A stretch of 64,000 nt of DNA, taken from positions 26,142 through 90,141 of the forward strand of contig CAJWYM010000002.1 in NCBI GenBank assembly GCA_913049555.1. Reading direction: 5' to 3'. Each line of letters begins with the position of its first letter. The first letter of the stretch is position 1. The stretch is from an uncultured Opitutia bacterium. GTDB lineage: Bacteria > Verrucomicrobiota > Verrucomicrobiia > Opitutales > CAJWYM01. The notes beneath the pieces were generated by a model, which was not told the origin of the DNA, did not search any database, and was given only the letters and a program-made list of their open reading frames with translations. A program made the translations under genes and the position numbers. Of the stretch, positions 13,522 through 58,833 are shown in pieces.

Positions 13522-14411
13522 TGAATAAACCTTTTCTTTAAAATATTTGTACGGATGGGATCTTTTATAATCAATTCCAAGGCATCTACTGTGATTGGAT
13601 CTTGGCAGGAAATGGAGTGGATTTCTTCATCACTGCATCTCAATAAAATTGCTAATGGTTGGTTGCTTATTTTGTTTAATACACGGACTGATTTCTTAAA
13701 TCTTTTCATAAGAAATAGGTGTCTTACGATTTGAAAAAAGATATAGAAAATCGAAGAAGCGCCTGCGAAATAAACCAAAGAGTCATTTATTGATTCTATA
13801 AAATGATTCAAAACACTGGAAATAAAATAAGAAAAACAGAGAACAATAAAAATCAAAGACTCTAAGGGTCTATGAAAAATCCCACCCCAAAACTGGATTC
13901 TTTTGTTTTTACATACCTGATAGGCCAATATTTCTTCATAGACAATGGAATGGAAAGAAACTCTAGAAGCATGGACGAATTCATGAGCAATGAGTTCCTC
14001 ACGGTTGTAAATAAACCACCGATTTTTATCCTTAAACTTTTCTTTAAGTGAAATAATAAAATTGATTGTGTCGAAGGATATAAATCGAGCCCCGGCAAAC
14101 AAACTCAGCAATTGATCCTCATAAAAAACGGGGGCCCATCCGATCTCAATCTCAAAAGTTTCTTTGATTAGAGCATTTGCTTTCTTGAGAACAAGAGCAG
14201 GAACTTTTTTTTCATTCAATTTTTTAGGAGTTAAATCAGGGGGTAAAAGATCTGAATAATTTTCCTCGGGATTTGAATTTACTAAGGCATGGACCCTCTG
14301 ATACCAATTCTCCTCTGTTTCGAGAGGGCTTTTAATAAATCCATTCGCATCCAATTCAGTTTCAATAAAACTGGAGCTCAAAGAATCATTCTGTTTTGTT
14401 TTGATCTCCAT
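13518..14411 (-). CDS. Unknown membrane protein with HExxH motif (putative Zn-metallopeptidase-like), pilus-operon embedded
   Basis: 297-aa ORF. HEFVH lies at aa 143-147 (13971-13985), followed by YEEILAY. Two hydrophobic helices are predicted (aa ~183-203 and ~212-232). It overlaps both neighbours. The start is uncertain: ATG 14411 has GGGAGG immediately adjacent, and TTG 14381 is an alternative. Confidence 0.6.
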   Translation of the reverse strand: MEIKTKQNDSLSSSFIETELDANGFIKSPLETEENWYQRVHALVNSNPEENYSDLLPPDLTPKKLNEKKVPALVLKKANALIKETFEIEIGWAPVFYEDQLLSLFAGARFISFDTINFIISLKEKFKDKNRWFIYNREELIAHEFVHASRVSFHSIVYEEILAYQVCKNKRIQFWGGIFHRPLESLIFIVLCFSYFISSVLNHFIESINDSLVYFAGASSIFYIFFQIVRHLFLMKRFKKSVRVLNKISNQPLAILLRCSDEEIHSISCQDPITVDALELIIKDPIRTNILKKRFIQ

Positions 14412-16131
14412 CCTCCCAGTTCAATCCAATATTATTGATAATATCTTCCAGCAACATTGGTTGCATGATTTCACCATTAATATATCGGTCTAATTGCATA
14501 TTTTGGCTGTCAATACTCTTGTTTCCATTGATATGGTAATGATGATTGGATAAACCATTCATCAACTTCTGAGTCATCAAATTCGCTTTCTCAGAATCAT
14601 CTACAATAAGCGGTCTTATCAATAGGATCAGTTCGGATTTTTTAACATCATCCCGGTCACTTCTGAACATTCCACCCAGAATCGGCACATCTCCTAATAC
14701 TGGGACTTTACTCGTGGACTCCGATCGCTCTGACCGGATTAATCCACCCATGGCGATTGTGAATCCATCCTTGGCAACAACAGTGGCCTTGATTTTTGCA
14801 GTATCTACAGAATCAATAGGAATTGTTTGCCCAGAGACAGTGATGCTATTATTTCCAGTCAAAAGGGTGCTGGATTCCTGTTCTACATAAAGTGTGACAG
14901 TCCTATCTTTATTAATTCTAGGAATAATAGAGAGGGTAGTGCCAATCGTTCTTTTCTCTGTTTGGGTATTCACCGTTTCATTAATGGTTCCGTTTTCTCC
15001 TGCTATATTGATGTCAGAGGAAGCACCCACAGTGATAATCCTTTCTTCTCCAACCTCTATTTCTGCCTTTCTGTTATTGGCAGCAATCAGAATTGGGGTA
15101 GCAATAATATCCACATTGTTGTTATTTGCTAACATTTCTACTCTAGCCTCAAAATCATTACTCAGATAACTGTAAATAAAATTAGAAGCTGCATTCGATG
15201 CGAGGTTGGATACTGAAAGTGAGGAGTTAATTTTATCATTGATTGCAAAATCAATCCCAACCGTGGAGGAATCACCGATGTCAAGTTCTAGAATTTTCAT
15301 TTCCAGTATCACCTGTGGTATTGGTTCATCCATTTGTTCAATCAAATTAACAATTTCATCTAAAGCCATAACATCTGTTGTTCGGACAATAATCATATTG
15401 TGCTCCACATTAGTAGTTAAAAATATAGAAGGCCCATTCTGTTCACTCAGTATATTAGGATTTTTGGAAGATCCAGCCTCTAATTTATAAAACGAGGAGG
15501 TGCGATTATTTTCCATGGCGAGCGCGTTTTCCCCCGAGATATTATTTTGATATTTATTATTGTTTTGAATCTGATTAGAAGATTGATTCGAGTTGTTATT
15601 GTTATTGTTGTTGTTGCTGTTATTGGATCCACTGCCACTATCTCCGCCTTTGGATCCGCCGCTCCCTCCGAGTTCTGAACTAAAATCAACAACTCCATCT
15701 TCCTCATGCAAAACTACTTGCTGATAATATAAAGATTCAATAGTCTTGGCTATCAGCGAGACATTTGCAGGTTCTACTCTAAAAATTTTTGTATAATAGG
15801 TGCCTTCTACTGTAGCATTGGTCTTATACTCATCCAGAGTCATAACCGTAAAAACTTCACTGTTAGAATCGAAGCGATAGACAAGACCGGCTGACTTGCA
15901 GACAAGTTTTAAGGCATCTATGGCTTCCATATCCCTTAAGAGAATATTGATTTTTTTATTACCGGATTTTTCAGTTGCAACGACATTGATTCGGCATAAC
16001 TCTGAAATCGCTCGAGTAGCTGTAGGGACATCACAATCCTTTAGGCTTAAATAAGTAATTTTGTCAGAATCTAATTTATTGGCCAATACTAGAAGCGGAA
16101 TAAAAAGAGTGAGTAGGATTAATAATTTCAT
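14386..16131 (-). CDS. Secretin (PilQ/GspD family) with a poly-Asn/Gly-Ser low-complexity linker
   Basis: 581-aa ORF with a signal peptide. The C-terminal secretin block is VPVLGDVPILGGMFRS...SELILLIRP. A low-complexity insert spans aa 154-197. Confidence 0.85.
   Translation of the reverse strand: MKLLILLTLFIPLLVLANKLDSDKITYLSLKDCDVPTATRAISELCRINVVATEKSGNKKINILLRDMEAIDALKLVCKSAGLVYRFDSNSEVFTVMTLDEYKTNATVEGTYYTKIFRVEPANVSLIAKTIESLYYQQVVLHEEDGVVDFSSELGGSGGSKGGDSGSGSNNSNNNNNNNNSNQSSNQIQNNNKYQNNISGENALAMENNRTSSFYKLEAGSSKNPNILSEQNGPSIFLTTNVEHNMIIVRTTDVMALDEIVNLIEQMDEPIPQVILEMKILELDIGDSSTVGIDFAINDKINSSLSVSNLASNAASNFIYSYLSNDFEARVEMLANNNNVDIIATPILIAANNRKAEIEVGEERIITVGASSDINIAGENGTINETVNTQTEKRTIGTTLSIIPRINKDRTVTLYVEQESSTLLTGNNSITVSGQTIPIDSVDTAKIKATVVAKDGFTIAMGGLIRSERSESTSKVPVLGDVPILGGMFRSDRDDVKKSELILLIRPLIVDDSEKANLMTQKLMNGLSNHHYHINGNKSIDSQNMQLDRYINGEIMQPMLLEDIINNIGLNWEDGDQNKTE
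15541..15672 (-). repeat. Low-complexity coding tract (GGSGGSKGGDSGSGS + poly-Asn) inside the secretin gene
   Basis: Runs of AAT/AAC and GGN/AGY codons visible as gttgttattgttattgttgttgttgctgttattgga on the + strand. Translates to SNNSNNNNNNNNSNQSSNQIQNNNKYQNN. Confidence 0.8.
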
Positions 16132-16132
16132 A

Positions 16133-16615
16133 TTATCTGAGTATGAATTTTGATCTTTGATCGATTACCACTAACATCCTAGTGTCTGTTATTTCTTTCA
16201 CATGCACCGGTGTAATTTTATAATCAGACCCTTGTATACTGAAGTAATCTTGTTCTTTAACCATAATAATCTCCCCTTGAGGCAATTCCAAATAGGCCAC
16301 TTTTTTCCCACTACTACTCGAACCCAATACTAAAACCTTAATTTTAATTAGATCATTGAATATTGGATTTTGCCCTTGATTGTTTTGAAGCGCATAAATG
16401 GGTATATTTACTTGTTGAACCATAGAATTAAATGGATCTCGAATCTCCACTTTCTCAATATTTTCTGAAGTTGAGGCATCCATAGATGGATCCAAATCTA
16501 AATTTTGTTCTTGAGAATAAACAACATTTTTTATCATTAAAAATGTTGCTAGAAAAAAGTAAAACGGGATTTCTTTTATCCTGCTTTCACGAATTTTAGA
16601 TAATTTTTTTTTCAT
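16133..16615 (-). CDS. PilP/GspC-like periplasmic pilus assembly protein
   Basis: 160-aa ORF with an N-terminal membrane anchor, an RDPF motif, and a C-terminal beta-rich segment. It lies directly upstream of the secretin with a 1-nt gap. The assignment rests on position plus one short motif. Confidence 0.5.
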   Translation of the reverse strand: MKKKLSKIRESRIKEIPFYFFLATFLMIKNVVYSQEQNLDLDPSMDASTSENIEKVEIRDPFNSMVQQVNIPIYALQNNQGQNPIFNDLIKIKVLVLGSSSSGKKVAYLELPQGEIIMVKEQDYFSIQGSDYKITPVHVKEITDTRMLVVIDQRSKFILR

Positions 16616-16616
16616 T

Positions 16617-17843
16617 TTATAAAGTTTTATAGACCGAAAGTAATGCCATAATCATGGCAATGTAGACAAAGGCTACAATGAAACCGACTGATAGTATCAA
16701 GATAGGACCAGTAAGATTGACGATGATCCCAATTATAGATTCTAGCTCTTTAGAATAGAAGCCCTTGAGTTCATTGAAAGAATCAGGCAAATTTCCTGAA
16801 TTTTCGCCAGCGCTGATAAGACTATAAACCGTTTGAGGAAAATAGGGAGAATCTATGGATTCTCTCAATTGAGCTCCAGCTAATAACTTGGGTCTGGCCC
16901 CAATGAATACATCCTTAATAATTTGAACTTGAACAATTTTAGATACAGAATCAATTGCTTGCAGAACATTGATCCCACTCTTCAACATGACTGACATAGA
17001 GCTAGCAAACTGAGACAGAACAGAGAGCGTAAGGGCTTTTCCTAAAAAGGGAATTGACAAGAGGATTCGTTCTTGGAGTCTCCTTGTTTTTTTATTCCTA
17101 AACATCAGCAGCATAGTTGTTATAAAGCCTGCAGTGCCTAAGGATAGAAAAACCCAATAATCAGTAAAAAAATGAGAGATATCGACTACGAGTTGAGTGA
17201 TAAATGGGAGAGATTTATTTAATTTGGATAAGATTTTTTCTTCTAGGATTGGAATGAAAAAGAAAACTAGGAATCCAATTACTATTAAAGACAAAGCAAA
17301 TACAATTGCTGGATAAATGAGAACTGTAAGAGTTTGTTTTTTTAAATCGTCCCAAAAAACCATTGTCTCTGCGACTCTCTCCAATGTGATAGCTAAGTCC
17401 CCACTTTGTTCGGCACTGCTAATAATTTCTATAGCTATAACAGGCAGTAATTGAGAACCATTCTTTAGAGATTGGGAAAAAGAAGAACCGCTCTGCAGGT
17501 CTTGGATAATTGAATTCAGCTTGTTCTGTAATTTTACTTTTTCAGATTCTTCCTCAATAATCCTTATAGATTCCATTAAGGTTAAGCCTGAACGGAGCAT
17601 GACGGACAATTGTCGCAGAAACATGATTTTATCTTTTGAGCGAATAGGCCACTTATTGGCTCTTTTTTTACGCTTATTACCAGAACTTCCTCCGAAACCG
17701 TCACGATCATTTTCTTCAACTTGTAAAACAATATTCCCAGTTTCTCTTAGTTTTCTAGCAGCAGCAGACTTATTTTCAGCCTCAATCGTTCCAGACTTTT
17801 TAGTCTGAGTGCGATCTTGAATTGTGTATTTAAAATCAGGCAT
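16617..17843 (-). CDS. pilC: PilC/GspF-family inner-membrane platform protein
   Basis: 408-aa ORF with duplicated T2SS-F repeats (ISSAEQSGDL and LISAGENSGNLP) and three hydrophobic segments. Confidence 0.9.
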   Translation of the reverse strand: MPDFKYTIQDRTQTKKSGTIEAENKSAAARKLRETGNIVLQVEENDRDGFGGSSGNKRKKRANKWPIRSKDKIMFLRQLSVMLRSGLTLMESIRIIEEESEKVKLQNKLNSIIQDLQSGSSFSQSLKNGSQLLPVIAIEIISSAEQSGDLAITLERVAETMVFWDDLKKQTLTVLIYPAIVFALSLIVIGFLVFFFIPILEEKILSKLNKSLPFITQLVVDISHFFTDYWVFLSLGTAGFITTMLLMFRNKKTRRLQERILLSIPFLGKALTLSVLSQFASSMSVMLKSGINVLQAIDSVSKIVQVQIIKDVFIGARPKLLAGAQLRESIDSPYFPQTVYSLISAGENSGNLPDSFNELKGFYSKELESIIGIIVNLTGPILILSVGFIVAFVYIAMIMALLSVYKTL

Positions 17844-17862: not shown

Positions 17863-18966
17863 TCATTTTAATAAAGAAGAAAAGCTTCTTGAATTTCTTT
17901 TAGAACCCAAAATATCCTCTAAAAGTCTACTATTTCTGCATTTTATCCTGCCCATTTCATAATCAATTTTTCCTTCCAAAATAAGTTTAGCCAATTCAAA
18001 ATCGATGCTTTGCATTCCAGATTTAGAACCCGTTTCTAAAACGCTGTAAATCTGGGTGAACTGATGGGTGTGAATTAAATTTTTTACTGCCGCATTGGAG
18101 CGTAGTATTTCTAATACCGGTATCCTCCCAGTTCCATTTTTTAAAGGCAAAAGGCTTTGAGCAACTACAGATTTAAGAACCATTGCCAATTGTCTCCTAG
18201 CGGATTCTTGCTCTTCTGCCGGATACATAGCAAGAATTCTATCCAATGCACCCACCGTATCACCAGAGTGAACGGTTGAGAACACTAAATGCCCGGTCTC
18301 TGCCGCAGTAACTGCCGCCCTAATGGTCGGAAGATCACGCATTTCTCCAACTAGAATAACATCAGGGTCCTCCCTCAGTGCATCCCTCAAAGATTCTGAA
18401 AAGCTTAAAACATCTGTTCCTAGCTCTCTCTGATGAACGAGAGATTTGCGATTCAAATGAACATATTCAATGGGATCCTCAATAGTTAGTATGTGGCAAG
18501 CGCGCGATTGATTGATAGAATCAATCAATGCAGCTAATGAGGTGCTTTTACCGCTTCCAGTAGGGCCTGAAAATAAGACCAAACCATCTTTGAGTTCCGT
18601 TAATTCTAATAATTTTTCTGGCAATCCTAAATCATCAAAACTTTGTATTTGGTCATTCAATCTGCGGACAGCAATTGCAATAAAACCTCTCTCTTTATAG
18701 AAGTTCAATCGAAACCTCGTGGATTGAAAAGAACATGCAGAATCTAAACAGTGATTTTTATGAAATTCTAATTTCATCTTCTCCGAGGTGATCCCATTGA
18801 ATAATTGATGGACATCCGCTTCGTTAAGAAAACGATCTTCAACAGCAACAATCTGACCATTTTTTCGGCCATGAATAAAAGAATTGGCGGTTATATGAAG
18901 GTCCGAAAAATCACTATCAATAGTGATTTTTAAAAGCTTAGAAAACTCTTCATTGATATTAAGCAT
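17863..18966 (-). CDS. pilT: PilT-type (retraction-class) hexameric ATPase
   Basis: 367-aa ORF lacking the long N-terminal domains of PilB. Contains GPTGSGKSTS, TIEDPIEY, DPDVILVGEMRD, TGHLVFSTVHS, and an AVKNLI box resembling the PilT AIRNLIRE motif. Confidence 0.8.
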   Translation of the reverse strand: MLNINEEFSKLLKITIDSDFSDLHITANSFIHGRKNGQIVAVEDRFLNEADVHQLFNGITSEKMKLEFHKNHCLDSACSFQSTRFRLNFYKERGFIAIAVRRLNDQIQSFDDLGLPEKLLELTELKDGLVLFSGPTGSGKSTSLAALIDSINQSRACHILTIEDPIEYVHLNRKSLVHQRELGTDVLSFSESLRDALREDPDVILVGEMRDLPTIRAAVTAAETGHLVFSTVHSGDTVGALDRILAMYPAEEQESARRQLAMVLKSVVAQSLLPLKNGTGRIPVLEILRSNAAVKNLIHTHQFTQIYSVLETGSKSGMQSIDFELAKLILEGKIDYEMGRIKCRNSRLLEDILGSKRNSRSFSSLLK

Positions 18967-19547
18967 TAGACCATAAAAGCAACTGAAATTTCAAGGGAGG
19001 AATCTTGAGATTTTTTGATTTCTAATTCCATAAATATCAAGTCATATTCTAAGATTTCAATAGAAGATAGAAATTGAAATAGATCTCTGTAATTTCCTCT
19101 TAGATTAAGGACATGGGTCTTTCTATCTTGAGGACTTTTTCTATGAGAAACCTTGTTTCCAGATTCAATTTTCGTGACAACCAAACGGTTGTTTCTTGCA
19201 ATCTTTACTAGATTTCCGATCAGAGCTTGAACGGCTCCACGATTGTTAAGGTCAATTAAATTTGGAGCATCAATCGTTGTATTCTTATTTAGTTTTTCCA
19301 AGTCTTTTTCAAGTCCTGCTAATTCCTCCTCCAATTTTTTGATGTTGGGAGCTTTGGGATCATTTTTAGTATAATTAAAGAGATAATTTTTATTTGCTGT
19401 AAGATCCTCGATTTCTTCTTCAAGATCTAAAATTTTAAGATTATAAATGGAATTTGTAATCCAATGAGTCAACAAACACAAAACAACCAGAATTAGGATT
19501 GTTAGACCGCCATATTTTTTATAGGTTTTAACCTCTTCCATGATCAT
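18966..19547 (-). CDS. PilO/GspM-like bitopic pilus assembly protein
   Basis: 193-aa ORF with one N-terminal TM helix (LTILILVVLCLLTHWI) followed by a coiled coil and a small C-terminal domain. Coupled to both neighbours (TAATG and ATGA). Assigned by architecture and position only. Confidence 0.5.
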   Translation of the reverse strand: MIMEEVKTYKKYGGLTILILVVLCLLTHWITNSIYNLKILDLEEEIEDLTANKNYLFNYTKNDPKAPNIKKLEEELAGLEKDLEKLNKNTTIDAPNLIDLNNRGAVQALIGNLVKIARNNRLVVTKIESGNKVSHRKSPQDRKTHVLNLRGNYRDLFQFLSSIEILEYDLIFMELEIKKSQDSSLEISVAFMV

Positions 19548-21136
19548 CGCTTTGGTATTAATGAAAAGTGATAAGAAGTTCCATTTCCCTGAGCTAGTTT
19601 CAAGATTAATTCTTGCTCATTTAAATCCCAATCACCCATTTCATCATAGAAATTTTGGATCATTTTATGAACCGCTGTATCCGTGATTGAGTTGCCGGAA
19701 ATTGATAGATTTGCAGAGGCATCAATTTTAATGTGATCCAAAGCGATCTCTTTTTGTATGGACTTGCTTATTTTATGCAATGTAGATGCGTAAAAATCAA
19801 CTCGATGATTTTGATTAAAAACTACCAACTTCCCTTCTGTTTGTCTTTTAAGTTTTTTAATTTCGCGTTGAAGTTCTTTTTCTTTTTTTAGTGCTAGAGT
19901 CTTTTCTTTTTGGTCTAGTTTGAGAGAATCATAACTCTTTTCTAAACGGGATTTTTCCTCTGATAAATCCTGATGTTTTTTCCATGTTTCCACCGGTGAT
20001 AGGAAACAAAATAAAGCATAAAAAAGAAATCCTAGGGTAAGATAAAAGAAAACATTGTTGTATATGGGTTGAGGTTCATGAATAACCTCTAGGATTGGAA
20101 TTGGATATTGGTGTTTTGATTCCGCTTGATCTAGTAGGACGGATTCGATCGATACTAAGCTTGATTTCTTTGAATCTAAAACAAGCTCTTGGATCTCTCG
20201 GTCCTGCTCTTCAATTCGTTTTAAATTCTTCGTTATATCACTCCATTGAAGCCAATTACTTCTAGAGTGAATCCACTGTACCTCATGCATGCAAATGTCT
20301 TGGAGTAAACTCAATGGGATCTCCTCTTTAATACATGGGTAAGAAACCTGTTCTATTATGTTTCCAGATTTGAAAAATGTGCAGTGAATTTCAAAAAGAT
20401 CCGTTTCAATCAGTGCAACTGGACTGTTGTCTTTGTCAGACAAAGCAAATAAGTTGTAATCAGCAAATTTTAAGGGTATCAGAGCTAAAAGATTGAGTTT
20501 TTTCTGGGTAAAAAATTCAAGCCATTCCAAATACATTCTTTCAGGTATGTAGGATATGTAGGAGTATCCTTTAGGGAAATTTCTACTAGGTTTTGCAAAA
20601 TTTACCTTATAGTCTTCACTTTCACTTGGCCATTGATCTATTTTGTAGTGAAACAATTCTTCTTGTTTAGGACTCAATAACTTTTTTTGTTTTGCAATCT
20701 CAACGACTCCCAATCCACTTTCTATGGCTTCATCCATCAATAACAAGCGATCCTGCTTTTTAAGAAAATCACTTTTTTCTAAGAATTGCTCTAAAGATGG
20801 TGCGGTTCCTAAATAGTCCCAAGCCCCATCCATTTCCCAGCGAATCATAGATTGAAGCTGGTCCTGATCTAAGTTTTTTGGAATATCAATATTCAACCAA
20901 CCCGCATTGTGTTCCATTGAAGACAACACAATGTTTTTGGGAAATTTCTTAACTTTTTTCTGCAATGAATCAAAACACTCCTCCACCGCCCACCTTGTGT
21001 CGATAGAATTTACTTCAAAGCATTCAATCACTTCGAGAACGTTCTCAACTTTCTTGAAAATATGAAGAGAAACCTTAGAAAAGTTTATTTCTAAGTATAA
21101 AAAGCTTTTATTTTTTAAGATATTTTCTAATTCCAT
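19544..21136 (-). CDS. GspL / PilM-PilN fusion-like bitopic assembly protein
   Basis: 530-aa ORF. A ~355-aa cytoplasmic part is followed by one TM helix (VFFYLTLGFLFYALFCFL), then a K/E coiled coil and a periplasmic domain. Assigned by architecture and position only. Confidence 0.5.
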   Translation of the reverse strand: MELENILKNKSFLYLEINFSKVSLHIFKKVENVLEVIECFEVNSIDTRWAVEECFDSLQKKVKKFPKNIVLSSMEHNAGWLNIDIPKNLDQDQLQSMIRWEMDGAWDYLGTAPSLEQFLEKSDFLKKQDRLLLMDEAIESGLGVVEIAKQKKLLSPKQEELFHYKIDQWPSESEDYKVNFAKPSRNFPKGYSYISYIPERMYLEWLEFFTQKKLNLLALIPLKFADYNLFALSDKDNSPVALIETDLFEIHCTFFKSGNIIEQVSYPCIKEEIPLSLLQDICMHEVQWIHSRSNWLQWSDITKNLKRIEEQDREIQELVLDSKKSSLVSIESVLLDQAESKHQYPIPILEVIHEPQPIYNNVFFYLTLGFLFYALFCFLSPVETWKKHQDLSEEKSRLEKSYDSLKLDQKEKTLALKKEKELQREIKKLKRQTEGKLVVFNQNHRVDFYASTLHKISKSIQKEIALDHIKIDASANLSISGNSITDTAVHKMIQNFYDEMGDWDLNEQELILKLAQGNGTSYHFSLIPKR

Positions 21137-22065
21137 ATATTAATATCCATTTGAATGGTTAAGGCGGAAGTTGTTTGGGGAACAAGGTAGTATACTTGAG
21201 GGTTTAATTGATTGATTCTATTCCTTAATGAATCTACCAATTCAACGTCCGTATTGTAGAAAACAAACTGAAACTTTCTAATAAAGTCAGTCGGAAAATA
21301 TGATATTGTAAAAGTTTCCTCTTGATTCGAATCAATAGAAATATCTTCTTTTAAAACAGAATTATGGTCTGTAAAATCATCATCAATATCAATTCCTGGA
21401 TAAATAATTCCAAGATGCATTGCAGTGGAATTCAATGTGTTGTTTTTGAGAGTAACACTTATGGAGACGTCGTTTGTTTTGTACAATGAGTCCTCAATAA
21501 CGGACTGATTAGGATAATCTTGTTCAAAATTTTCGGTTCCGCCTGCACTGCCATCTTTTCCAAAGCTTTGTAAAGTCATATCGCTACCGACCATGCCATA
21601 TTGAAAAACATGGCCCCATCCATCTCTAAGTTCAGATTCCACAAAATCTAAATAAGGTCCCCTCCATCCGTGCATAATACTTATGTTAGGGATTGGAACA
21701 TCCCCGACTTGCTCCGATCCGATATAAACATAAGAACTCAACAATCCTGTAATACTGGCACCATCATACAGCTCTTTTAAAAACTCGTGATTTTCACCCC
21801 CCTCATATTTTATCGGTAACCTGCCCATATCTGCTATAAATCCATCGATGATAGGAGTTGAGTTAAGGGTTGTGCTTCTTTTTGTGCCAAGGATTGAACG
21901 CTTAATAATTTCTAATCTATCTGCGGTTTTACGATATCTTTGTTCATCATCCGCTGAGTCAAAAACCATCAGAGTTGCAGATGCTACAAGTCCCATAATA
22001 AAAAGAACGAGCAACATTTCGATCAGAGTAAACGCAGAGCGAGACTCTAGATTATTACCTTTCAT
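21127..22065 (-). CDS. Prepilin-type (class III signal) minor pilin/pseudopilin
   Basis: 312-aa ORF. N-terminus is MKGNNLESRSA|FTLIEMLLVLFIMGLVAS, with Glu at +5 and Ala rather than Gly at -1. Confidence 0.8.
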   Translation of the reverse strand: MKGNNLESRSAFTLIEMLLVLFIMGLVASATLMVFDSADDEQRYRKTADRLEIIKRSILGTKRSTTLNSTPIIDGFIADMGRLPIKYEGGENHEFLKELYDGASITGLLSSYVYIGSEQVGDVPIPNISIMHGWRGPYLDFVESELRDGWGHVFQYGMVGSDMTLQSFGKDGSAGGTENFEQDYPNQSVIEDSLYKTNDVSISVTLKNNTLNSTAMHLGIIYPGIDIDDDFTDHNSVLKEDISIDSNQEETFTISYFPTDFIRKFQFVFYNTDVELVDSLRNRINQLNPQVYYLVPQTTSALTIQMDINIWN

Positions 22066-22072: not shown

Positions 22073-22777
22073 TTACTTTCCTAGATAAACAACAATATCA
22101 TTTTCTTTGTCTAAGTTGCTTACTGAGTCAAAAACGCCATCTTCACCAAATGAAATTAAATAATACTTGTTTAGATACTCTTTAATAACTAGAGGGTTGC
22201 CATTTTTCGAAATAATTAGATTAGGATTTCCATCATGGCCCCAATAATTGAATTGACTGAAGTTTTGAGTATCAAAATCCTTAAAGAATTGGTCTGACAG
22301 TGCATAAACTCCATCATATTGATCTCCAGCATTGAGATTATTAGAGCCCGCATTGTATAACTTTAAATTCAATCCTGTTATATAAGGACCATTCCAACCA
22401 TGGTTGTAATCAGGCTTGTAATTCCAGAAATTTGGATCCGAAATTTTTACTGGTTGTTCGAAAAGTTGCCAGAAATTCACGCTTAAATCTGCCCAAGTTT
22501 CTGTAGATAAACCCACCTCGTTACCAAATACATCATAATCATCGAGGTCTAAATTCGCAGCTGCTAACTCTCCAAAACCTGGGAAATACCCCATGTCTTT
22601 TCGAAATTGAACCAGCGCGGTCTTAACCGTTGAAAGATTGTAGGTGGTTAATTTGTTCTCGGCATTTTTCAATAAATTAGAATCTAAATTTATCATAAAT
22701 GCTCCCCCGACAAGGGCCAGAATACTAGTCACCACTAATAACTCTAGAAGTGTGAAACCTTTTTTAATAGAATCCAT
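22073..22777 (-). CDS. Prepilin-type minor pilin/pseudopilin
   Basis: 234-aa ORF with a canonical MDSIKKG|FTLLELLVVTSILALVGG N-methylation motif. Confidence 0.85.
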   Translation of the reverse strand: MDSIKKGFTLLELLVVTSILALVGGAFMINLDSNLLKNAENKLTTYNLSTVKTALVQFRKDMGYFPGFGELAAANLDLDDYDVFGNEVGLSTETWADLSVNFWQLFEQPVKISDPNFWNYKPDYNHGWNGPYITGLNLKLYNAGSNNLNAGDQYDGVYALSDQFFKDFDTQNFSQFNYWGHDGNPNLIISKNGNPLVIKEYLNKYYLISFGEDGVFDSVSNLDKENDIVVYLGK

Positions 22778-22806: not shown

Positions 22807-22844
22807 GATAAACAAGAAAGGTAAGGGTGGGGCGATCCCTTACC
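22807..22844 (-). terminator. Intrinsic terminator/attenuator after the major pilin gene
   Basis: On the minus-strand transcript, 23 nt after the TAA stop, there is a hairpin GGTAAGGG-atcgcccca-CCCTTACC (perfect 8-bp stem, 22820-22844). It is followed by TTTCTTGTTTATC. Confidence 0.55.
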
Positions 22845-22867
22845 TATGAACGAAGTCTAACTAAACC

Positions 22868-23839
22868 TTATTGTTTTTGACCTGTAGATTCAGCGAACTC
22901 TTCATCTAAGAAATCGCCTCTTGGATCAACAATGCAGATCATTTTAGCAGGATCTTGGGCCACATCCACTAACATGATGTAGTGGTTGTATTCATTTTTA
23001 GCAACATCTCCATAGAAAGGAGCATTGTCTAAACGAACATTTCCAACACCACCAGATTTATCATCGTCGGCACTGACCAAACTGGAAGCATTTCCGATTC
23101 CCAATCCAACTAGAACAGCCGTGGGTGAAGCACCCACTTTGACATTGTCATATTTTGCAACAGGAGCTGCAGGGTCTTGACTACTCCAAACCATAAATTC
23201 AGCTCCAGAGGCAGATGCAGCAAAACCAGCATCGGACATATCAAGAGCAAAACCACGACCACGATTTCTTCCATCTCCAGGACGAGGAGCTTCGAAAGCA
23301 TGTTGAGGAATAGAGATTTCGCTCAATGCACCTACTTGTGTAGCAGCAGCACCGTCAGCTGCAGCGATCGTAAGATCCGCAACCGTTTCGTCATTTCCTA
23401 GTAAATCTAGGTATCTAACTGAATCAATTCCAGCATTTTTCAAGGCATCTAACTGATCTTCGGTCAAAGCAGATACGCCAAACTTTCCAGCCAGTTTAGA
23501 ACCTAGGTGTCCAGCAGCCTCCACATCACCAACGACAACAGCAGTGCTGTCTAATAATGCTGCGTCATGAGCGGGAGCAGTTGGAGTAGCTGCTAGAAGG
23601 GATTCTACATTGTTAGGCAAAGCTTTCTCCGTAACATTGTAGGAACGAATTGAATTTTGCAGAGATGCAATAGAATTCGTTGCGGTTGATTTAGCAGCTT
23701 GAGCAATCAGTCCATCATAGGCAGCGATCATAGAACCCCCAATAAGGGCCATAATACCTACAACAACTAACAATTCTAGCAAAGAGAAGTTTCTCTTTGT
23801 TGATTTTTTGTTTGTTCTTTTAATTATTGAACTTTTCAT
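22868..23839 (-). CDS. Large prepilin-type protein, probable major pilin (non-canonical Asn at -1)
   Basis: 323-aa ORF and first gene of the operon. N-terminus is MKSSIIKRTNKKSTKRN|FSLLELLVVVGIMALIGG, with Glu at +5. The body is Ala/Gly/Asp-rich. It is followed by a terminator-like hairpin, as is common for major pilins. Confidence 0.75.
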   Translation of the reverse strand: MKSSIIKRTNKKSTKRNFSLLELLVVVGIMALIGGSMIAAYDGLIAQAAKSTATNSIASLQNSIRSYNVTEKALPNNVESLLAATPTAPAHDAALLDSTAVVVGDVEAAGHLGSKLAGKFGVSALTEDQLDALKNAGIDSVRYLDLLGNDETVADLTIAAADGAAATQVGALSEISIPQHAFEAPRPGDGRNRGRGFALDMSDAGFAASASGAEFMVWSSQDPAAPVAKYDNVKVGASPTAVLVGLGIGNASSLVSADDDKSGGVGNVRLDNAPFYGDVAKNEYNHYIMLVDVAQDPAKMICIVDPRGDFLDEEFAESTGQKQ

Positions 23840-23878
23840 TGTACTCTTTTATTTTATATTTGATATATTATATATTGA

Positions 23879-23921
23879 GTTAGGGTTAAGTGTCGCTTGC
23901 GATTTGACATTTAGCCCTAAC
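23879..23921 (-). promoter_or_regulatory. Hairpin in the putative 5' leader of the pilin operon
   Basis: GTTAGGG (23879-23885) pairs perfectly with CCCTAAC (23915-23921). The stem is extendable to ~14 bp with G-U pairs. It lies 39 nt upstream of the pilin ATG. Confidence 0.4.
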
Positions 23922-24952
23922 ATTATCCACAGCCAGAATTAAATGGTAGATAATTGACATCTAACAATAAATTCTAACTTTTAAGCAAAGGATTCAAAAT
24001 TTGCTTCCTTTGCAGGACAACAAACAGAGTATATAAAAATGCACCCCCCTTTTTCTACCCTTGGAAGAATAAAAAAACCCCTTAAAAGAATAAATATGCT
24101 CCCTTCAATATGGATGGTAGGTTTTTAAAAATAAGCATAAAAAATTACCTCTGCAGGGTTTAAAAATGCCTATAAAACAGCCACTAGAACCTGTATTGCT
24201 TGACTTTTATCAACCTTGACTAATTTTTATCTTTTCTTAAATGCTATTAAAAAATGAGTTGAAATTAGTTTTCTTAAATCGCAACGCATGAATTTTCAAT
24301 GCAATAAAATGGATTCCTAATTACTAAATTGCTAAAAAGAATAACAGAACAATTCTTAAAATAGGGCTTCGATCATACAGGCTTTGCTTGATACAATGTT
24401 GAAAAAAGGTATATTCCATTTAGAAAAAGAAGCTCGTCATCTATACGATTCAAATTGAATGATTACTCGATTTTAAAACAAGCAGAAAAAGGGAACCGTT
24501 ATTTATGCGTAAATCATCCTATTTCTGGATACTGCAGGCATTAAAATTACCAGGAATTACGCTGTAACTTGATGGGGTTTATGAGAGTTAAAATTTCAAT
24601 CTGAAAATATTTCAATTTCAATTTGGACCGGGTGAAATGCCCTGTTTTATTTGTCGCTGGTTGTGTTGTTTTAAGAATGCCTTGTGTTCCCTTTCGAGCC
24701 TCTCCGCCTAGAATAAAAATTTTAAAACGGTAGAACTGACTAAACTACTATTTCAGCGTCCAGCTTAGTCCCCTATTTTTGAAATTTTGTTGCCTACTCA
24801 TCTTCACATTTTCCTGAACGGTTATTTATAAAAGAGAGCCTACAGATTGCATGCACTTTTAATGTTTTTCAGGGAACCTGCCTATCCTAACACCCCAAAG
24901 ACTGATTTTAAAAAAAGCTTGGATAGACTTTGCAAAATGACAGTATAGATTT

Positions 24953-25826: not shown

Positions 25827-27347
25827 TCAATGGTCTGATTTAAAATTCCTAGGATGGGTTTTAAGTTTATCTGGATAGGAAGATTTGGATACGTTGCTTA
25901 AAGGTTCTTCATTCTGGATAAGCATTAAAATCATTTTTTCCATCAATTCCGCTTTTATTTTTAAATGTGCAGGATCTTTGCTATCGATCCGATTATACAA
26001 TTCTCCTGGATCTTCTTTTAAGTCATAGAGCTCCTGTTTGCCAGAGATCTCCGAGATTAATTTCCAGTTGTTGAAGCGGACCATCCTCATGCTTCCTCCC
26101 AATGAATATTCGTTGAGTTCGTTGAAGCTGACTCCTTTTGGCGATATATATTTATCCAAATCTGGTTGGTCCTCCCAGTTGTAATTGAGTCCCCCATATC
26201 CCGTTTCACAAAAAGCAGTATCAAAGTCTTGTTTTGGATACTCTTCGCCCCGGAGCAAGGGGGCCAGACTTTTTCCTTGAACGCCCTCAGGAATATCTTG
26301 TCCAATAATTTCACAAATGGTAGGAAAAATGTCGATGAGATTTACATGGGCATCATGGACTTTTTTACGGGATTGAATGCCAGCTCCTTTCACGATGAAT
26401 GGCACCCGACAAAGGGTCTCAGGAAGTCCAGGTCCTTTTCTCATCAATCCGTAGTCACCCACAAAATCACCATGGTCTGAAATGAAAAAAAGAATTGTAT
26501 TTTCTAAAATACCCTCATTTGATAAATGCTCTTCTAGACTCTTAATTTGATCATCGATCAAACGACACATGGAGTAGTAATTGTATCTATAATCTTCGAA
26601 TTTTTGATCAAAATCTTCCTTTGCTTTGCGTTGAATTTTTCCAGTCACTTCCCATTTAAAACCTTTTTCTTTGTATTTTGTTTTGTCACCAATAATAGGA
26701 GGAAGCTTTTCATTTCTAAACATTGAGAAATAGGGTTCTGGAACCTGATAAGGATTGTGGGGTTCATTTATGGATAGGTGCATGAAAAAAGGTTCTGTAT
26801 TTCGGTTTTTAGAAATCCATTTTTTTGCAGTTTTAATCAATCGAGCAGGACTTTGACAATGCAGCGGAAAAGGGGTGGGTTTATTTGAAATCCAGTGGTG
26901 TAAACTTCCTAGCCATGCATCAAAATCCACCTCCATGGAGTTTCTCTCAGCTCCTGCAATTCCTTTATCAGTATGGGCACCTTGATGATCGTGTTGATAC
27001 CAAAAATCACAATCCTTCTCCTCTAAATGAGTATGATTTTTCCCAATCATAGCGGTTTTATAATTGGCTGCTTTCAAAACATCAAAAAGATCTTTTTGGT
27101 ATCTTGGTTGTGTGATCCTATTGCAACGGATTCCAGTAGAGGTAGGACGGCGACCAGTAAATAAGGACACTCTAGCAGGACCGCACAATGGGATTGGAGT
27201 GTATGCTTTATCAAACCACACCCCCTCATGGGCCATTGTATCTTGATGGGGTGTGATGTCCCATGGAAATCCTTCTCGACCACAGGCCCTTGCCTGTTGT
27301 TGGTCTGTCATGATAAGAATAATGTTGGGTCTTTGAGGCATACTCAT
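25827..27347 (-). CDS. Cys-type sulfatase without a recognisable signal peptide
   Basis: 506-aa ORF that starts directly with MSMPQRPNIILIMTDQQ. Contains CGPARVSLFTG, GKNH and SDHGDFVGDYG. Confidence 0.88.
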   Translation of the reverse strand: MSMPQRPNIILIMTDQQQARACGREGFPWDITPHQDTMAHEGVWFDKAYTPIPLCGPARVSLFTGRRPTSTGIRCNRITQPRYQKDLFDVLKAANYKTAMIGKNHTHLEEKDCDFWYQHDHQGAHTDKGIAGAERNSMEVDFDAWLGSLHHWISNKPTPFPLHCQSPARLIKTAKKWISKNRNTEPFFMHLSINEPHNPYQVPEPYFSMFRNEKLPPIIGDKTKYKEKGFKWEVTGKIQRKAKEDFDQKFEDYRYNYYSMCRLIDDQIKSLEEHLSNEGILENTILFFISDHGDFVGDYGLMRKGPGLPETLCRVPFIVKGAGIQSRKKVHDAHVNLIDIFPTICEIIGQDIPEGVQGKSLAPLLRGEEYPKQDFDTAFCETGYGGLNYNWEDQPDLDKYISPKGVSFNELNEYSLGGSMRMVRFNNWKLISEISGKQELYDLKEDPGELYNRIDSKDPAHLKIKAELMEKMILMLIQNEEPLSNVSKSSYPDKLKTHPRNFKSDH

Positions 27348-29827: not shown

Positions 29828-30644
29828 GATTTTTAATCGAAGTGCTTTTTTATAAGGGAATAGAAATGACTTTCTTTGACATTCTCTACCAGACAATATG
29901 TGCAAGATTATACATGATGTCTGTTGGCATAGGACCTAAAAGAAAGTTGTATTCAGGTTCAAGACCTGAGACTACATAAAGATCGATTAGACCGACTAGT
30001 TTTTGCTGAGCTTGTAAGATAGAAGAAAGCATAATTTTTTAATAAATGAGAGAATTAGTAAGGTGAGAAAGGGTGGAAAATCGTAAAGAAATGGGAAGAA
30101 AGAAAGTTGAAAATTTTAAAAGTTGAAAATGAGATCTAATAGAAAAAAACCATACATAAAAAATTGAATTCTCTTAAAAAGGCAGCAGAAAGCCACTGAT
30201 TATTAAAGGTTCATCAATCCAAGGGAGATATTAAGAACGTTTCATTATGGAACTCAAAAATCCAAAAAGAAATGTACTGACAAAGAAATTGGAGGTTTAT
30301 TTTAAAAAGCAAACATACGTATATGATATGAAGTAGGGATGATGTGAAGGGTATTGTGTAAAATTTACTCTAAGTAAATGAGACTTTTATTGCTTCTGCA
30401 ATTATAAAATTATCTTTTTCTATTATTTTAAGTATTGTAAGTTCTAGTGGGTTTCAAATGAGTGCCCTATTTTTCCATAAAAATATCAACTCCATTTCTA
30501 GTTTCCCAAATTGTTTTTCATTTTAATTAGAATTTCTTTTTTTCATTGTCGCTTTAGGACAGTTTTGTGGCGAACCTTAACATTGTAAATAAAGCCATTT
30601 TTGTTAAAATGCTTCACTCTCATCTCTATCACATTCAATATTCT

Positions 30645-32348
30645 ATGAAAAAAAATTCTTTCACTCTTTTAATTCTGTGTTTTCTTTCTCTGATTTTGTA
30701 TCCCACTCTAAATGGCGAAGATGCATCGACTCCCAATATTATTGTGATCTATGCGGATGATCTCGGTTATGCTGATTCTTCCGTTCAAATGATGGCATCG
30801 GACCCATCGACTAAGCATCCTTTCATTCTTACTCCCGGACTTGATCGATTAGCTAAAATCGGGGCTCGCTTCACCTCTGCTTATTCTCCCTCTCCGACCT
30901 GCACTGCCTCACGAGTAAGTATTCAGTTTGGTCAATCGACTGCAAAAATCCAGTATCGAAATGTATTCGATGTATTTTCCTCTGTGCAACGACCAAACGG
31001 ATATGATACAGAGATAACCGTTGCAGACATGTTTAAAGAATCTGGTAAAAATTATAGAACAGCCCATTTTGGTAAAGGTTGCAGTATTATCGGACGTTTT
31101 GATGAGTCTGGTTATGATGTAACGGATGAAAATCCTGGAGAAATCGGTGGCAATGGGAATGCACACGGCTCCTATTGGGATCCCATTTCTGAAAAGACCC
31201 CATTTCCGCCGGACAATCCCAAGAGGATGTATTCGCTAATGCGAGATTCTGTTGATTTTATAAATAAAAATTGCGGAAAAAATCCTTTTTTTATGATGGT
31301 TTCTCACTATGCACCTCATATTCCTTTTTATTGCACAGATGAGGTATTTGAACGAAACAAAAAGCGCTGGATTGAGCAGGGTCGAGATTCCACTGGAATT
31401 GACAATAAAAGATCTCCTGTCAGCAAGAAAATTCTCTACGCTTCTATGGTTGAGGAGATGGATTTAACTTTGGTGGCAATTTTAGATACTCTAGAAGCCA
31501 AAGGTGCTCTTGATAACACCTATATTATTTTTACATCTGACAATGGTGGTGGGTTTGCGGATCGTCGTGATATTGACGGAGAGTTGCGAAGATTTAATGG
31601 TCCTTTACAAGAGGGCAAACGATCTATTTATGAAGGAGGAATTCGGGTTCCAACTCTTATCTCGGGACCCTTGATTCAGCCTGGCTCTGAGTGCAATGTC
31701 CCGATTGTTCAATGGGATTTCCTTCCTACTTTCCATGATTTAATTGGAAGTGAAGCTCCGATCCCACCAAATTCAGATGGGGGAAGTTTGAAAGATGTTT
31801 TTGAAAAAGGGAATCAGGGTAAGGTGAAGCGAGTAGCCCCTGGAATCATTCACCATTATACTTGTCATTATCATCCGCCAATAAGCTCTATTATATTGGG
31901 GGATTATAAGCTCATGCGCCATTTAAACACAGGTGAATTTAAACTCTTCAACATTAAGACCGACTATCGCGAAGAAATTAATTTAGCTGCTGAGATGCCG
32001 GAAAAAGTTAAAGACATGGATCGTACTTGCAGGGAGTATGTGGAGCATGTCAACGGAGGAACTGCTGAGGAAGTTCGACAAGCTCACCATGCACTGTTGG
32101 ATATATTTAACAATCAATCTATTCAAGGATATAAAAAGAAAGTATCTGCTCTGAAAGAACAAAATCTCCCTGATTTTGAAACAAAGAAAGAGGAGTTGCT
32201 TAAAAACTTGAATAAAAGTTTGTTCAAAAATCAAATCAGTAAAGAGAAGACAAACATCCATCGGGATTTAGATTCTTGGAGAGAAGGTCCTGGCGTAAAA
32301 GAAGCGAAAACGTTGGCACTTGCCGGATGGGTAGATTTTGTGGATTGA
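30645..32348 (+). CDS. Cys-type sulfatase with C-x-A-x-R signature variant and a K/E-rich C-terminal extension
   Basis: Start placed at ATG 30645 (MKKNSFTLLILCFLSLIL, a signal peptide) rather than the GTG at 30567. Contains IIVIYADDLGYAD, CTASRVSIQFG and SDNGGG. The last ~100 aa are a charged helical tail. Confidence 0.85.
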   Translation: MKKNSFTLLILCFLSLILYPTLNGEDASTPNIIVIYADDLGYADSSVQMMASDPSTKHPFILTPGLDRLAKIGARFTSAYSPSPTCTASRVSIQFGQSTAKIQYRNVFDVFSSVQRPNGYDTEITVADMFKESGKNYRTAHFGKGCSIIGRFDESGYDVTDENPGEIGGNGNAHGSYWDPISEKTPFPPDNPKRMYSLMRDSVDFINKNCGKNPFFMMVSHYAPHIPFYCTDEVFERNKKRWIEQGRDSTGIDNKRSPVSKKILYASMVEEMDLTLVAILDTLEAKGALDNTYIIFTSDNGGGFADRRDIDGELRRFNGPLQEGKRSIYEGGIRVPTLISGPLIQPGSECNVPIVQWDFLPTFHDLIGSEAPIPPNSDGGSLKDVFEKGNQGKVKRVAPGIIHHYTCHYHPPISSIILGDYKLMRHLNTGEFKLFNIKTDYREEINLAAEMPEKVKDMDRTCREYVEHVNGGTAEEVRQAHHALLDIFNNQSIQGYKKKVSALKEQNLPDFETKKEELLKNLNKSLFKNQISKEKTNIHRDLDSWREGPGVKEAKTLALAGWVDFVD

Positions 32349-32511: not shown

Positions 32512-33480
32512 ATGAATACATTCAAAAGTGAATTGAATAAGGTCAACGCAGTCAGAGAAGAAGTTGGTCGAGTGATTGTTGGTATGGAAAACTTGATCAA
32601 TCGTTTGTTGATTGGGGTTCTATGCGGGGGTCATGTTTTGGTTGAGGGAGCTCCTGGTTTAGCAAAAACGATGACAATACGAACCTTGTCTCGTGCATTG
32701 GGAATCAGTTTTTCAAGAATCCAGTTTACTCCTGATTTATTGCCTGGCGACTTAATCGGGACTCTTGTCTACAATCAAGGTACTGGAGACTTTATGCCTC
32801 ACTTGGGACCTGTATTTGCCAACATGGTTTTAGCGGATGAAATCAATCGATCTCCTGCTAAAGTTCAAAGTGCATTGCTTGAGGCGATGGAAGAAAAACA
32901 GGTTACAATTGGGAATAAAAGTTATTCGCTAGATGAGCCTTTTCTTGTGTTAGCTACTCAAAATCCTGTGGAGCAGGAAGGGACTTATCCATTGCCTGAA
33001 GCCCAACTGGATCGATTTATGTTTAAGGTATTGATCGATTATCCAACGATTGAACAAGAGGAAGAAGTTTTATCTCGGATGGCCAAAATGGGCAGTTCTA
33101 TTGAAGTCCACAAAGTATTAGAGGGTGAGTCTATTTTACAAATCAGGAAGTTGATCGATACGATTCATTTGCATGAAGATTTGAATAAGTATGTAGTTCG
33201 ACTTGTGGATGCAACTAGAAATCCGGATTCCTACGGGCTGGGCTCTTTAAAAAAATACATACGTTATGGTGTTTCACCGAGGGCCAGTTTGGCAATGATC
33301 CGTTCGGCAAGAGCTTTTGCATTTTTACAAGGTCGAGAATATGCAACTCCTTCAGATGTCAAAGAGATCTCTAAAGATGTCATGAGGCATAGAATTATTT
33401 TAAACTATAAAGCAGAAGCCGAGGGGGTCGATGCTGAGGATGTAATCAGTAAAATTTTACAAGAAGTTCCAATGAGCTGA
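32512..33480 (+). CDS. MoxR-family AAA+ ATPase
   Basis: 322-aa ORF with Walker A GAPGLAKT, Walker B LADEINR, and ATQNP..EGTYPLPEAQLDRF. Confidence 0.92.
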   Translation: MNTFKSELNKVNAVREEVGRVIVGMENLINRLLIGVLCGGHVLVEGAPGLAKTMTIRTLSRALGISFSRIQFTPDLLPGDLIGTLVYNQGTGDFMPHLGPVFANMVLADEINRSPAKVQSALLEAMEEKQVTIGNKSYSLDEPFLVLATQNPVEQEGTYPLPEAQLDRFMFKVLIDYPTIEQEEEVLSRMAKMGSSIEVHKVLEGESILQIRKLIDTIHLHEDLNKYVVRLVDATRNPDSYGLGSLKKYIRYGVSPRASLAMIRSARAFAFLQGREYATPSDVKEISKDVMRHRIILNYKAEAEGVDAEDVISKILQEVPMS

Positions 33481-33512
33481 ATCCTAATCAATCTTTTTAC
33501 CATTTCGCTGCT

Positions 33513-36101: not shown

Positions 36102-36106
36102 TTGTT

Positions 36107-37903: not shown

Positions 37904-37929
37904 TATATAATATTCAATGGGTTTCATTC

Positions 37930-43014: not shown

Positions 43015-43023
43015 TGGTATTTT

Positions 43024-43773: not shown

Positions 43774-43795
43774 TGTGAATGGATTAAAAAAAGTT

Positions 43796-58824: not shown

Positions 58825-58833
58825 AAGGATGCT

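Follow-up and report, generated by a model that had tools for sequence, protein, structure and literature searches.

Type IVa pilins such as PilA of Pseudomonas aeruginosa and PilE of Neisseria, which are processed by PilD, carry a basic leader of 6–7 residues followed by Phe at +1, Glu at +5, and a hydrophobic helix of about 20 residues that runs into a long α1; mutagenesis of Gly at −1 in PilA, PulG, and PilE blocks processing, apart from a partial tolerance of Ala. Here, we describe pilin 1, a type IV pilin-like protein of 323 aa with Asn at −1, encoded on the minus strand at positions 22868–23839 of a 64,000-nt stretch of contig CAJWYM010000002.1 (positions 26,142 to 90,141; assembly GCA_913049555.1, uncultured Opitutia bacterium), hereafter called the window. 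It was assigned as a putative major subunit from its open reading frame (ORF) and translation, its homologs, an AlphaFold2 (AF2) model, and codon bias. Pilin 1 resembles type IVa pilins in its basic leader, Phe+1, Glu+5, and a hydrophobic helix leading into a long α1, and PilB-, PilT-, and PilC-type proteins and a secretin are encoded together with it. Unlike these pilins, it has Asn rather than Gly at −1, a leader of 17 aa, about twice the size, and a single Cys, so that neither a disulphide loop nor a disulphide-bonded D-region can form. Its gene cluster also differs from type IVa systems in holding only three pilin genes, with no set of four to five minor pilins and no PilY1-like gene in the window.

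Three other described systems bear comparison. In the streptococcal competence pilins (ComGC and others), Ala at −1 is an accepted bacterial exception, and pilin 3 of the same cluster (SRSA↓F; ↓, cleavage position) as well as many relatives from Planctomycetota and Verrucomicrobiota fit this case. However, Ala is among the two smallest residues, which cannot be said of Asn, Tyr, Gln, Arg, Lys, His, Phe, or Thr; we know of no studied system that uses any of these eight at −1. Exceptions in archaea mostly have Ala or Ser, often without Glu5; in the pilin 1 family, by contrast, Glu5 and Phe1 are invariant, the −1 residues of relatives include large and charged ones, and the machinery is that of a bacterial diderm with a secretin. 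The 'many exceptions in archaea' to a terminal Gly (Berry and Pelicic 2015, PMC4471445), found among PibD, FlaK, and EppA substrates, nevertheless indicate that A24-type enzymes can evolve other specificities.

The third comparison is with GspG of type II secretion. The best sub-threshold match of the N-terminal region of pilin 1 was TIGR01710 (E = 2.8e-5), pilin 3 contains a T2SSG segment, and homologs of pilin 1 are annotated as 'PulG' at source. Unlike GspG, pilin 1 scored 24 against an equivalog cut-off of 88.9 bits and has 323 aa rather than about 140, and the cluster encodes a PilT-family ATPase above its cut-off. The Gsp NCBIfam matches were far below their cut-offs, and no GspC, L, M, H, I, J, or K match was found among the operon proteins. 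The PilT-family match above its cut-off, together with Gsp matches far below theirs, points to a retractile pilus rather than type II secretion.

Asparagine at position −1 of pilin 1

Translation from the ATG at 23839 gave the N-terminus MKSSIIKRTNKKSTKRN↓FSLLELLVVVGIMALIGG, with the junction MKSSIIKRTNKKSTKRN↓FSLLELLVVV, Phe at +1, and Glu at +5. The leader peptide MKSSIIKRTNKKSTKRN (codons 1–17; 23789–23839, minus strand), delimited by translation and column conservation, comprises 17 aa with seven Lys/Arg and no acidic residue, Gly, or Ala. Codon 17 is AAC (Asn, −1; 23789–23791), codon 18 is TTC (Phe+1), and the Glu+5 codon lies at 23774–23776. The hydrophobic α1-N segment FSLLELLVVVGIMALIGGSMIAA (residues 18–40; 23720–23788, minus strand), which begins with Phe+1 and includes Glu+5, was placed by alignment, and F18, L20, E22, L24, V27, A31, G34, and G35 were invariant in an alignment of 24 sequences (A1). 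Pilin 1 thus has the positively charged hydrophilic leader of a class III signal peptide and the hydrophobic stretch of about 20 residues with Phe+1 and Glu+5, and lacks the Gly or Ala at −1, where it has Asn. A different start codon with a shorter leader was rejected, as the next Met falls within the conserved helix.

The AF2 model (predicted local distance difference test, 87.9; predicted template modelling score, 0.81) consists of one helix at residues 20–71 (52 residues) followed by β strands. The preliminary description of this DNA, made from the sequence alone, had presented the protein as a type IV pilin-like, probable major subunit at the head of a pilus operon, with a long and very basic leader and Asn at −1; each of these points stands, with the modeled helix, the invariant F+1 and E+5, and an Asn shared by the nearest homolog now added to them. 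Its further statement that the protein is rich in Ala, Gly, and Asp also agrees with the composition (15.5%, 9%, and 8%). It had called the protein unusually large as well, which is correct for the length of 323 aa and not for pilin 1 in particular, since the family spans 290–370 aa and about 300 aa is typical of its members. The analysis defines a pilin family of about 300 aa with a confidently modeled head domain that had no Foldseek match among solved structures. In this family (head domain of pilin 1, 22868–23680), a PRPG-x-GRNRGRGF loop is strongly conserved, and the C-terminus forms a RGDFLDEEFAE-x-TGQKQ tail.

Asn at −1 of pilin 1 is a real, fixed feature. The 323-aa protein was found unchanged on 13 contigs, and its leader and upstream DNA were identical base for base in the four contigs read, each from a different assembly (two ENA assemblies, one of them from Tara Oceans; the NCBI marine metagenome GCA_001757045.1; and one JGI sample). 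Two substitutions separate AAC (Asn) from GGC (Gly), and a homolog 93% identical to pilin 1 has the same leader.

Pilin 1 is probably the major subunit because its gene is the first of the operon, has the lowest GC content at third codon positions (GC3), favors T-ending codons, and is followed by a hairpin after its stop codon. GC3 was 0.269, the lowest in the operon (window mean, 0.348 ± 0.030), and T-ending codons were favored for Ala (GCT, 66% vs 36%), Gly (GGT, 45% vs 26%), and Val (GTT, 58% vs 41%). As had been noted by eye, the gene is richer in GC (0.43, up to 0.46 in 500-nt windows) than its flanks (about 0.30–0.37); the excess lies in codon positions 1 (0.577) and 2 (0.448). The raised GC is a matter of an Ala/Gly/Asp/Val-rich composition together with the T-ending codon bias, not of foreign origin. 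Horizontal transfer as the source of the higher GC was ruled out by the confinement of the excess to positions 1 and 2 and by a GC3 under background.

The hairpin (22810–22845, minus strand) was identified from its fold energy and resembles a terminator or attenuator: a 9-bp stem (AGGUAAGGG/CCCUUACCU) with a 9-nt loop, then UUUCUUGUUU. Hairpin and U-tract begin 23 nt past the pilin 1 stop codon, and the 83-nt stretch that holds them had a minimum free energy of −20.3 kcal/mol (z = −2.9 vs shuffles); our hairpin pattern scan was limited to loops of ≤8 nt and therefore missed it. As indirect evidence, these four cues together would be typical of a subunit that is made abundantly, with attenuation after it. 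A sigma-70-like promoter candidate (GCGACA, 18-nt spacer, TATAAT; 23867–23896, minus strand) lies about 28 nt upstream of the ATG, with only a 10/12 consensus match, and the nine promoter-like sites in the region were not above the shuffle mean of 13.4. Between pilin 1 and a divergent short-chain dehydrogenase gene, there is an AT-rich segment of 1.1 kb (23840–24952; GC about 0.30), unusually long for a promoter region, in which we found no ORF of ≥50 aa and no Rfam match.

Residue −1 in related pilins

We matched 180 homologs of pilin 1, of which 120 were listed, with identities of 42–93%; source names among the members include Lentisphaeria, Lentisphaerales, Lentisphaeraceae, Planctomycetaceae, and Pirellulaceae. 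Among the 117 homologs with a readable N-terminus, the −1 residue was Gly in 81, Asn in 23, Tyr in eight, and Arg, Gln, Ala, His, or Phe in one each, with F+1 and E+5 unvarying across the family. Column identity did not exceed 42% within the leader, was 58% at −1, rose to 100% at +1, and ranged over 83–100% from +1 to +7. Such a sharp conservation step at +1 is the pattern expected if the cut falls exactly before Phe.

A tree of the mature regions built by the unweighted pair group method with arithmetic mean required at least nine changes of the −1 state. Within a clade of 20 members (N clade), Asn was kept while the mature regions diverged to 67% identity, and in a second clade (Y clade), Tyr was kept down to 60% identity of the mature regions, suggesting that the −1 residue in these two clades is not simply drifting. 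In a third clade, R, Q, A, H, and N alternate at 51–68% identity. Pilin 1 itself is nearest to the Y clade (61–68% identity), and its nearest Gly-type relatives are 61–65% identical. The preliminary description had proposed an alignment of orthologs as a check, with Gly at −1 in them taken as a sign of a strain-specific substitution or a sequencing error. The outcome was mixed and strengthens the case: the closest homologs have N or Y, and a whole range of PVC (Planctomycetes-Verrucomicrobia-Chlamydiae) lineages have N, Y, Q, R, K, H, F, T, S, or A, whereas many distant homologs do have G. This distribution suggests that the Asn reflects a lineage-wide relaxation and not a strain-specific substitution.

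The deviation often extends to the other two pilins of the cluster. In the Lentisphaeria metagenome-assembled genome (MAG) ALOHA_ZT_20, the −1 residues of the three pilins are Q, R, and F on one contig (L001) and K, Q, and N on another (L071); they are N, T, and N in Lentisphaerales GCA_022446985.1 (L176), and H, N, and K on a metagenome contig (L087). A metagenome scaffold (L177) has N, A, and A, a further metagenome contig (L085) has Y, G, and G, a MAG of an uncultured 'Akkermansia sp.' (L012) has A, A, and A, and a Planctomycetota MAG (L011) has H, G, and S. Of the second pilin in the Lentisphaerales cluster (L176:11223–11789), MLKHT↓YTLLELV, both Thr at −1 and Tyr at +1 are non-canonical. 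The window has one pilin of each kind, pilin 2 ending its leader in Gly (KKG↓FTLLELL) and pilin 3 in Ala (SRSA↓FTLIEM), just as the preliminary description had read them. It had also listed the −1 residue of pilin 3 as a departure from Gly; the Ala is indeed present, although it is within the accepted 'Gly or Ala' range (PMC10191384).

When all class III-like N-termini of the fetched loci were counted by lineage, Gly occupied −1 in 130 of 131 from proteobacterial and other loci. The corresponding fractions were 21/28 for named Planctomycetota loci (the remainder mostly Ala), 11/17 for named Verrucomicrobiota loci, 3/7 for named Lentisphaerota loci, 3/9 for the window and its close relatives, and 0/7 for metagenome loci carrying the family of ORF297, a gene of the same cluster discussed below. 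Pooled, PVC-type loci had Gly in 38 of 68 N-termini as opposed to 130 of 131 in the rest (Fisher p = 1e-15). This contrast indicates that Asn17 belongs to a wider relaxation of the 'Gly or Ala at −1' rule across PVC bacteria and is not an oddity of one strain. Ala at −1 is common in Planctomycetota and Verrucomicrobiota, and it is chiefly in Lentisphaerota-like lineages that large or polar residues are found; across PVC relatives, the residues include Asn, Tyr, Gln, Arg, Lys, His, Phe, Thr, Ile, and Cys. We found no description of a non-Gly −1 residue in pilins of Lentisphaerae, Victivallis, Kiritimatiellaeota, or Planctomycetes in the open-access papers searched. A conserved and apparently highly expressed putative major pilin, along with dozens of PVC relatives, breaks the Gly/Ala rule.

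Detection tools (PF07963, TIGR02532, and PilFind-type rules) are built on the Gly/Ala statement. None of the listed homologs with N, Y, R, Q, H, or F at −1 had a precomputed PF07963 match, and the non-Gly pilins of Lentisphaerota and related groups are therefore likely under-annotated. Further pilin-like proteins with very short or odd leaders and a non-Gly −1 residue were seen on gut, rumen, and marine metagenome contigs (L106:~4326, L107/L115:~8631, L113:~11362, L115:~20026, L120:1429–2322, L126:~11601, L134:~17396, and L172:~7613 and ~9759). Their junctions include MRI↓FTLIELLIV, ILKC↓F, RSR↓F, LKR↓F, RHA↓F, FKR↓F, and TKR↓F, which suggests that the deviation at −1 reaches well beyond the pilin 1 family.

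Possible routes of leader removal

With moderate confidence, we favor the reading that pilin 1 is the major subunit of a retractile type IV pilus and that its leader is cut at N↓F by a tolerant A24-type prepilin peptidase. On insertion of the prepilin into the inner membrane, the leader, with 17 residues and a charge of +7, would stay in the cytoplasm. The leader would be removed, most likely between Asn17 and Phe18, by an A24-type prepilin peptidase that is encoded beyond the window and has an S1 pocket able to take larger and polar side chains, and the exposed Phe1 N-terminus would then be assembled via Glu5. Since N↓F, G↓F, and A↓F junctions must all be handled within one organism, a tolerant A24 peptidase would be the simplest mechanism; the peptidase of these lineages would be either unusually tolerant or a different protein, and we assume that an A24 enzyme is encoded elsewhere in the genome. 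If so, the substrate rule of prepilin peptidases would not be universal, and the enzyme of this lineage would be a natural specificity variant. Such a variant would be useful for understanding how A24 enzymes select the scissile bond, which is 'poorly understood' at present (Pelicic 2023, PMC10191384).

Several points weigh against the favored reading. In the Foldseek search against the PDB, the head domain of pilin 1 matched nothing, pilins included, and pilin 1 gave no match above threshold to PF07963 N_methyl or TIGR02532, the hidden Markov models (HMMs) for class III N-termini that pilins 2 and 3 pass; in both respects, it also differs from type IVa pilins. To our knowledge, studied PilD/GspO enzymes accept only Ala in place of Gly at −1, and a peptidase able to accept N, Y, R, K, H, F, and Q would have no bacterial precedent. 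In one review, bacterial leaders 'invariably' end in Gly (Berry and Pelicic 2015, PMC4471445), and a later one gives 'Gly or Ala' (Pelicic 2023, PMC10191384). Furthermore, no prepilin peptidase was detected in the window, in its extensions of about 20 kb, or in any fetched PVC locus. A scan for the GxGD[x]K motif over the window and loci recovered A24 genes only in the proteobacterial loci L019 and L075, and phmmer searches that used this pair as queries, covering every ORF in the window and in about 90 loci, had no match. The Pfam scan of ORFs with multiple transmembrane (TM) helices in the window returned PilC, two major facilitator superfamily (MFS) transporters, and unrelated proteins, with no prepilin peptidase, and about 10 kb beyond each window end held only sulfatase and similar genes, with no peptidase. 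However, prepilin peptidase genes often lie apart from pilus clusters, and the absence of a local peptidase therefore says little.

The same absence also counts toward a reading in which the leader is retained, with pilin 1 either a bitopic inner-membrane/periplasmic protein or a subunit assembled with its leader on, and with the −1 residue free to drift. We regard this as unlikely. In its favor, position −1 is the least constrained beside a fully conserved core, and R, Q, A, H, and N alternate in one clade at 51–68% identity. On the other hand, the invariant F+1 and E+5 are hallmarks of processed and assembled pilins, and according to established type IV filament structures, a basic leader of 9–40 residues would not fit the buried N-terminal core. 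N and Y are kept inside their clades, which is not the behavior of a drifting position, and the leaders are free in length and sequence in the manner of a discarded segment. In addition, the assembly and retraction machinery and the secretin are conserved alongside the pilin.

A different enzyme is conceivable in ORF297, an HExxH membrane protein of a large, uncharacterized PVC family (13518–14411, minus strand) whose gene overlaps both the secretin stop and the PilB start and hence belongs to the operon. Its family would be a membrane-anchored, cytoplasm-facing HExxH zinc metallopeptidase that cuts non-Gly prepilins, beside or in place of the A24 enzyme. ORF297 has HEFVH at residues 143–147 and YEEILAYQ at 158–165; it has no signal peptide, and two TM helices (182–204 and 210 onward) with positively charged flanks are predicted. 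Given these charged flanks, the HExxH domain should face the cytoplasm near the membrane, where leaders are cut. An exhaustive HMMER scan gave 800 representative relatives (365 at E ≤ 1e-10), whereas a word-indexed search had found one and a profile search 22. HExxH was present in 149 of the 150 best relatives, an EE pair lies 11 residues after the second His in the family, and Y135, H143, E144, H147, E159, and E160 were invariant in an alignment of 42 sequences (A2). Of these, H143, E144, H147, E159, and E160 count in favor of this candidate. No match was obtained against Pfam, PDB sequences, or by Foldseek; as the fold has no PDB match, the putative peptidase activity is deduced from the motif.

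Gene neighborhoods give a divided picture. A homolog occupies the same secretin-PilB slot in the Y-clade locus L085 (16045–16773; 27% identity) and in the N-clade locus L177 (19585–20193; E = 3e-35), and this slot is empty in Rubritalea, whose three pilins have G, G, and G. In L120, the homolog (429–1379) precedes a pilin whose −1 residue is Arg, then a secretin and a PilMN-like gene, and in L136, the order is PilB, PilB, PilT, PilC, homolog (9953–10864), which is the slot of pilD in pilBCD operons. Named relatives come only from Chlamydiae and Verrucomicrobiota MAGs, that is, from PVC bacteria, and all seven distinct pilin-like N-termini in the 80 loci carrying the family are non-Gly; phmmer with the A24 enzymes of L019 and L075 had no match in these 80 loci. 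Against such a role, no pilus genes lie within 10 kb in 36 of the 39 long loci with the family, the homologs of Chlamydiae and Verrucomicrobiota MAGs sit between topA-SWIB and rpoN, and enrichment near pilus genes is only marginal by a rough estimate. No homolog occurs in L001, L087, or L176, in which all three pilins are non-Gly, and the co-occurrence with non-Gly pilins may reflect shared PVC ancestry. We also know of no metallopeptidase that cuts class III signal peptides. In L001, a lipoprotein-like ORF of 172 aa (L001:19058–19576; lipobox ILGC), which may be a pilotin, replaces ORF297 in the secretin-PilB slot.

On balance, we find cleavage by the ORF297 family improbable, and the broader proposition, that in Lentisphaerota and other PVC bacteria leaders without Gly or Ala at −1 are cut by this family and not by the A24 aspartyl peptidase, is more doubtful still. 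If it did hold, the family would represent an additional class of prepilin peptidases, unrelated to the first, and ORF297 offers a concrete candidate for an alternative processing enzyme.

A cut at another site is very improbable, be it by signal peptidase I past the hydrophobic segment, where an A-x-A motif follows (AQA↓AKS; AQA↓A, residues 46–48), or after a Gly at −2, as present in several relatives (LGR↓F, SGN↓F, and IGH↓F). Conservation across the family peaks in the hydrophobic segment, which is homologous to pilin α1-N and part of the single modeled helix 20–71, and removed signal peptides are not conserved to such a degree. A shifted Gly site would not be general, given that pilin 1, the N clade, and the Y clade have no Gly or Ala in the leader; the cut after Gly at −2 was rejected as applicable to few relatives and impossible for pilin 1. 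Finally, a sequencing or assembly error, a private substitution of one strain, or a pseudogene, which only the prior expectation of Gly at −1 would recommend, deserves practically no credence for Asn17 and is ruled out by the independent contigs and the homologs: the protein is identical on 13 contigs with the same leader DNA in four assemblies, two base changes would be needed to give Gly, the 93%-identical homolog keeps the leader, N recurs at −1 in 22 further homologs and Y, R, Q, A, H, or F in 13, and the ORF is intact and strongly codon-biased.

Pilus gene cluster and genomic surroundings

Pilin 1 heads an 11-gene cluster on the minus strand that encodes pilins, PilB-, PilT-, and PilC/GspF-type proteins, and a secretin; all the genes below share this strand. 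Pilin 2 (22073–22777; 234 aa), with the canonical Gly at −1, matched PF07963 (25.8 bits) and TIGR02532 (24.5 bits). Pilin 3 (21127–22065; 312 aa), with Ala at −1 and a GspG-like segment, matched PF08334 T2SSG (28.2 bits) and PF07963 (23.3 bits). These are followed by a 530-aa protein (19544–21136), possibly a PilM/PilN-like fusion in view of a faint PilN match (E = 0.12) and a position that is conserved in all related clusters (L001, L085, L087, L176, and L177). A PilO-like protein of 193 aa comes next (18966–19547; PF04350 PilO, E = 0.0012, 19.4 bits, below the cut-off of 22), so that the PilMNOP set is represented by this weak PilO match and the faint PilN match only. The PilT/PilU-family retraction-type ATPase (17863–18966; 367 aa) scored 387.9 bits with TIGR01420 (cut-off, 319.1) and also matched PF00437. 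The PilC/GspF platform protein (16617–17843; 408 aa) matched PF00482 (E = 3e-46), with GspF/PilC NCBIfam matches below the equivalog cut-offs. A 160-aa protein with an N-terminal hydrophobic segment (16133–16615) had no family match and takes the same slot in related clusters. The secretin (14386–16131; 581 aa) matched PF00263 (E = 9e-38), and beyond ORF297, the cluster ends with a PilB/MshE-type assembly ATPase (12058–13521; 487 aa; PF00437, E = 1e-117) that has an MshEN N-domain (PF05157, E = 1e-9).

Synteny with the pilin 1 gene is preserved in at least 15 related loci. The order pilin 1-2-3 ... PilT-PilC-secretin recurs in Lentisphaeria, Rubritalea, and Planctomycetes, and the same order, with 25–38% pilin identity, was found in Beta- and Gammaproteobacteria such as Neptuniibacter, Accumulibacter, and Methyloversatilis. 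Conservation of the cluster spans Lentisphaerota, Verrucomicrobiota, and Planctomycetota, with more distant counterparts in some Beta- and Gammaproteobacteria.

The organism is marine and low in GC and has many sulfatase genes; judging by how the pilin homologs are named, it probably belongs to Lentisphaerota. Rfam and tRNA scans of the window gave no match. On the minus strand at 42370–47362, three consecutive ORFs of 1188, 275, and 214 aa had no Pfam match at E ≤ 0.001. A BatA/Bat-like operon order is seen at 32512–40218 on the plus strand, with genes for a MoxR AAA ATPase, a DUF58 protein, and membrane proteins; the MoxR and DUF58/VWA assignments were taken from the precomputed Pfam list for L081, and the 511-aa and 261-aa ORFs downstream had no Pfam match. 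Sulfatase genes (PF00884) are very dense: the window alone holds at least eight, and both extensions (L088–L090) add further ones; the sulfatase-rich regions are 132–1529, 6171–7742, 25827–27347, 30567–32348, and 57328–63356. Their neighbors include a GH2 glycosidase, a SASA-type esterase, and two MFS sugar transporters (47834–49261 and 49599–51026), and the sulfatase density fits a Lentisphaera-like degrader of sulfated polysaccharides.

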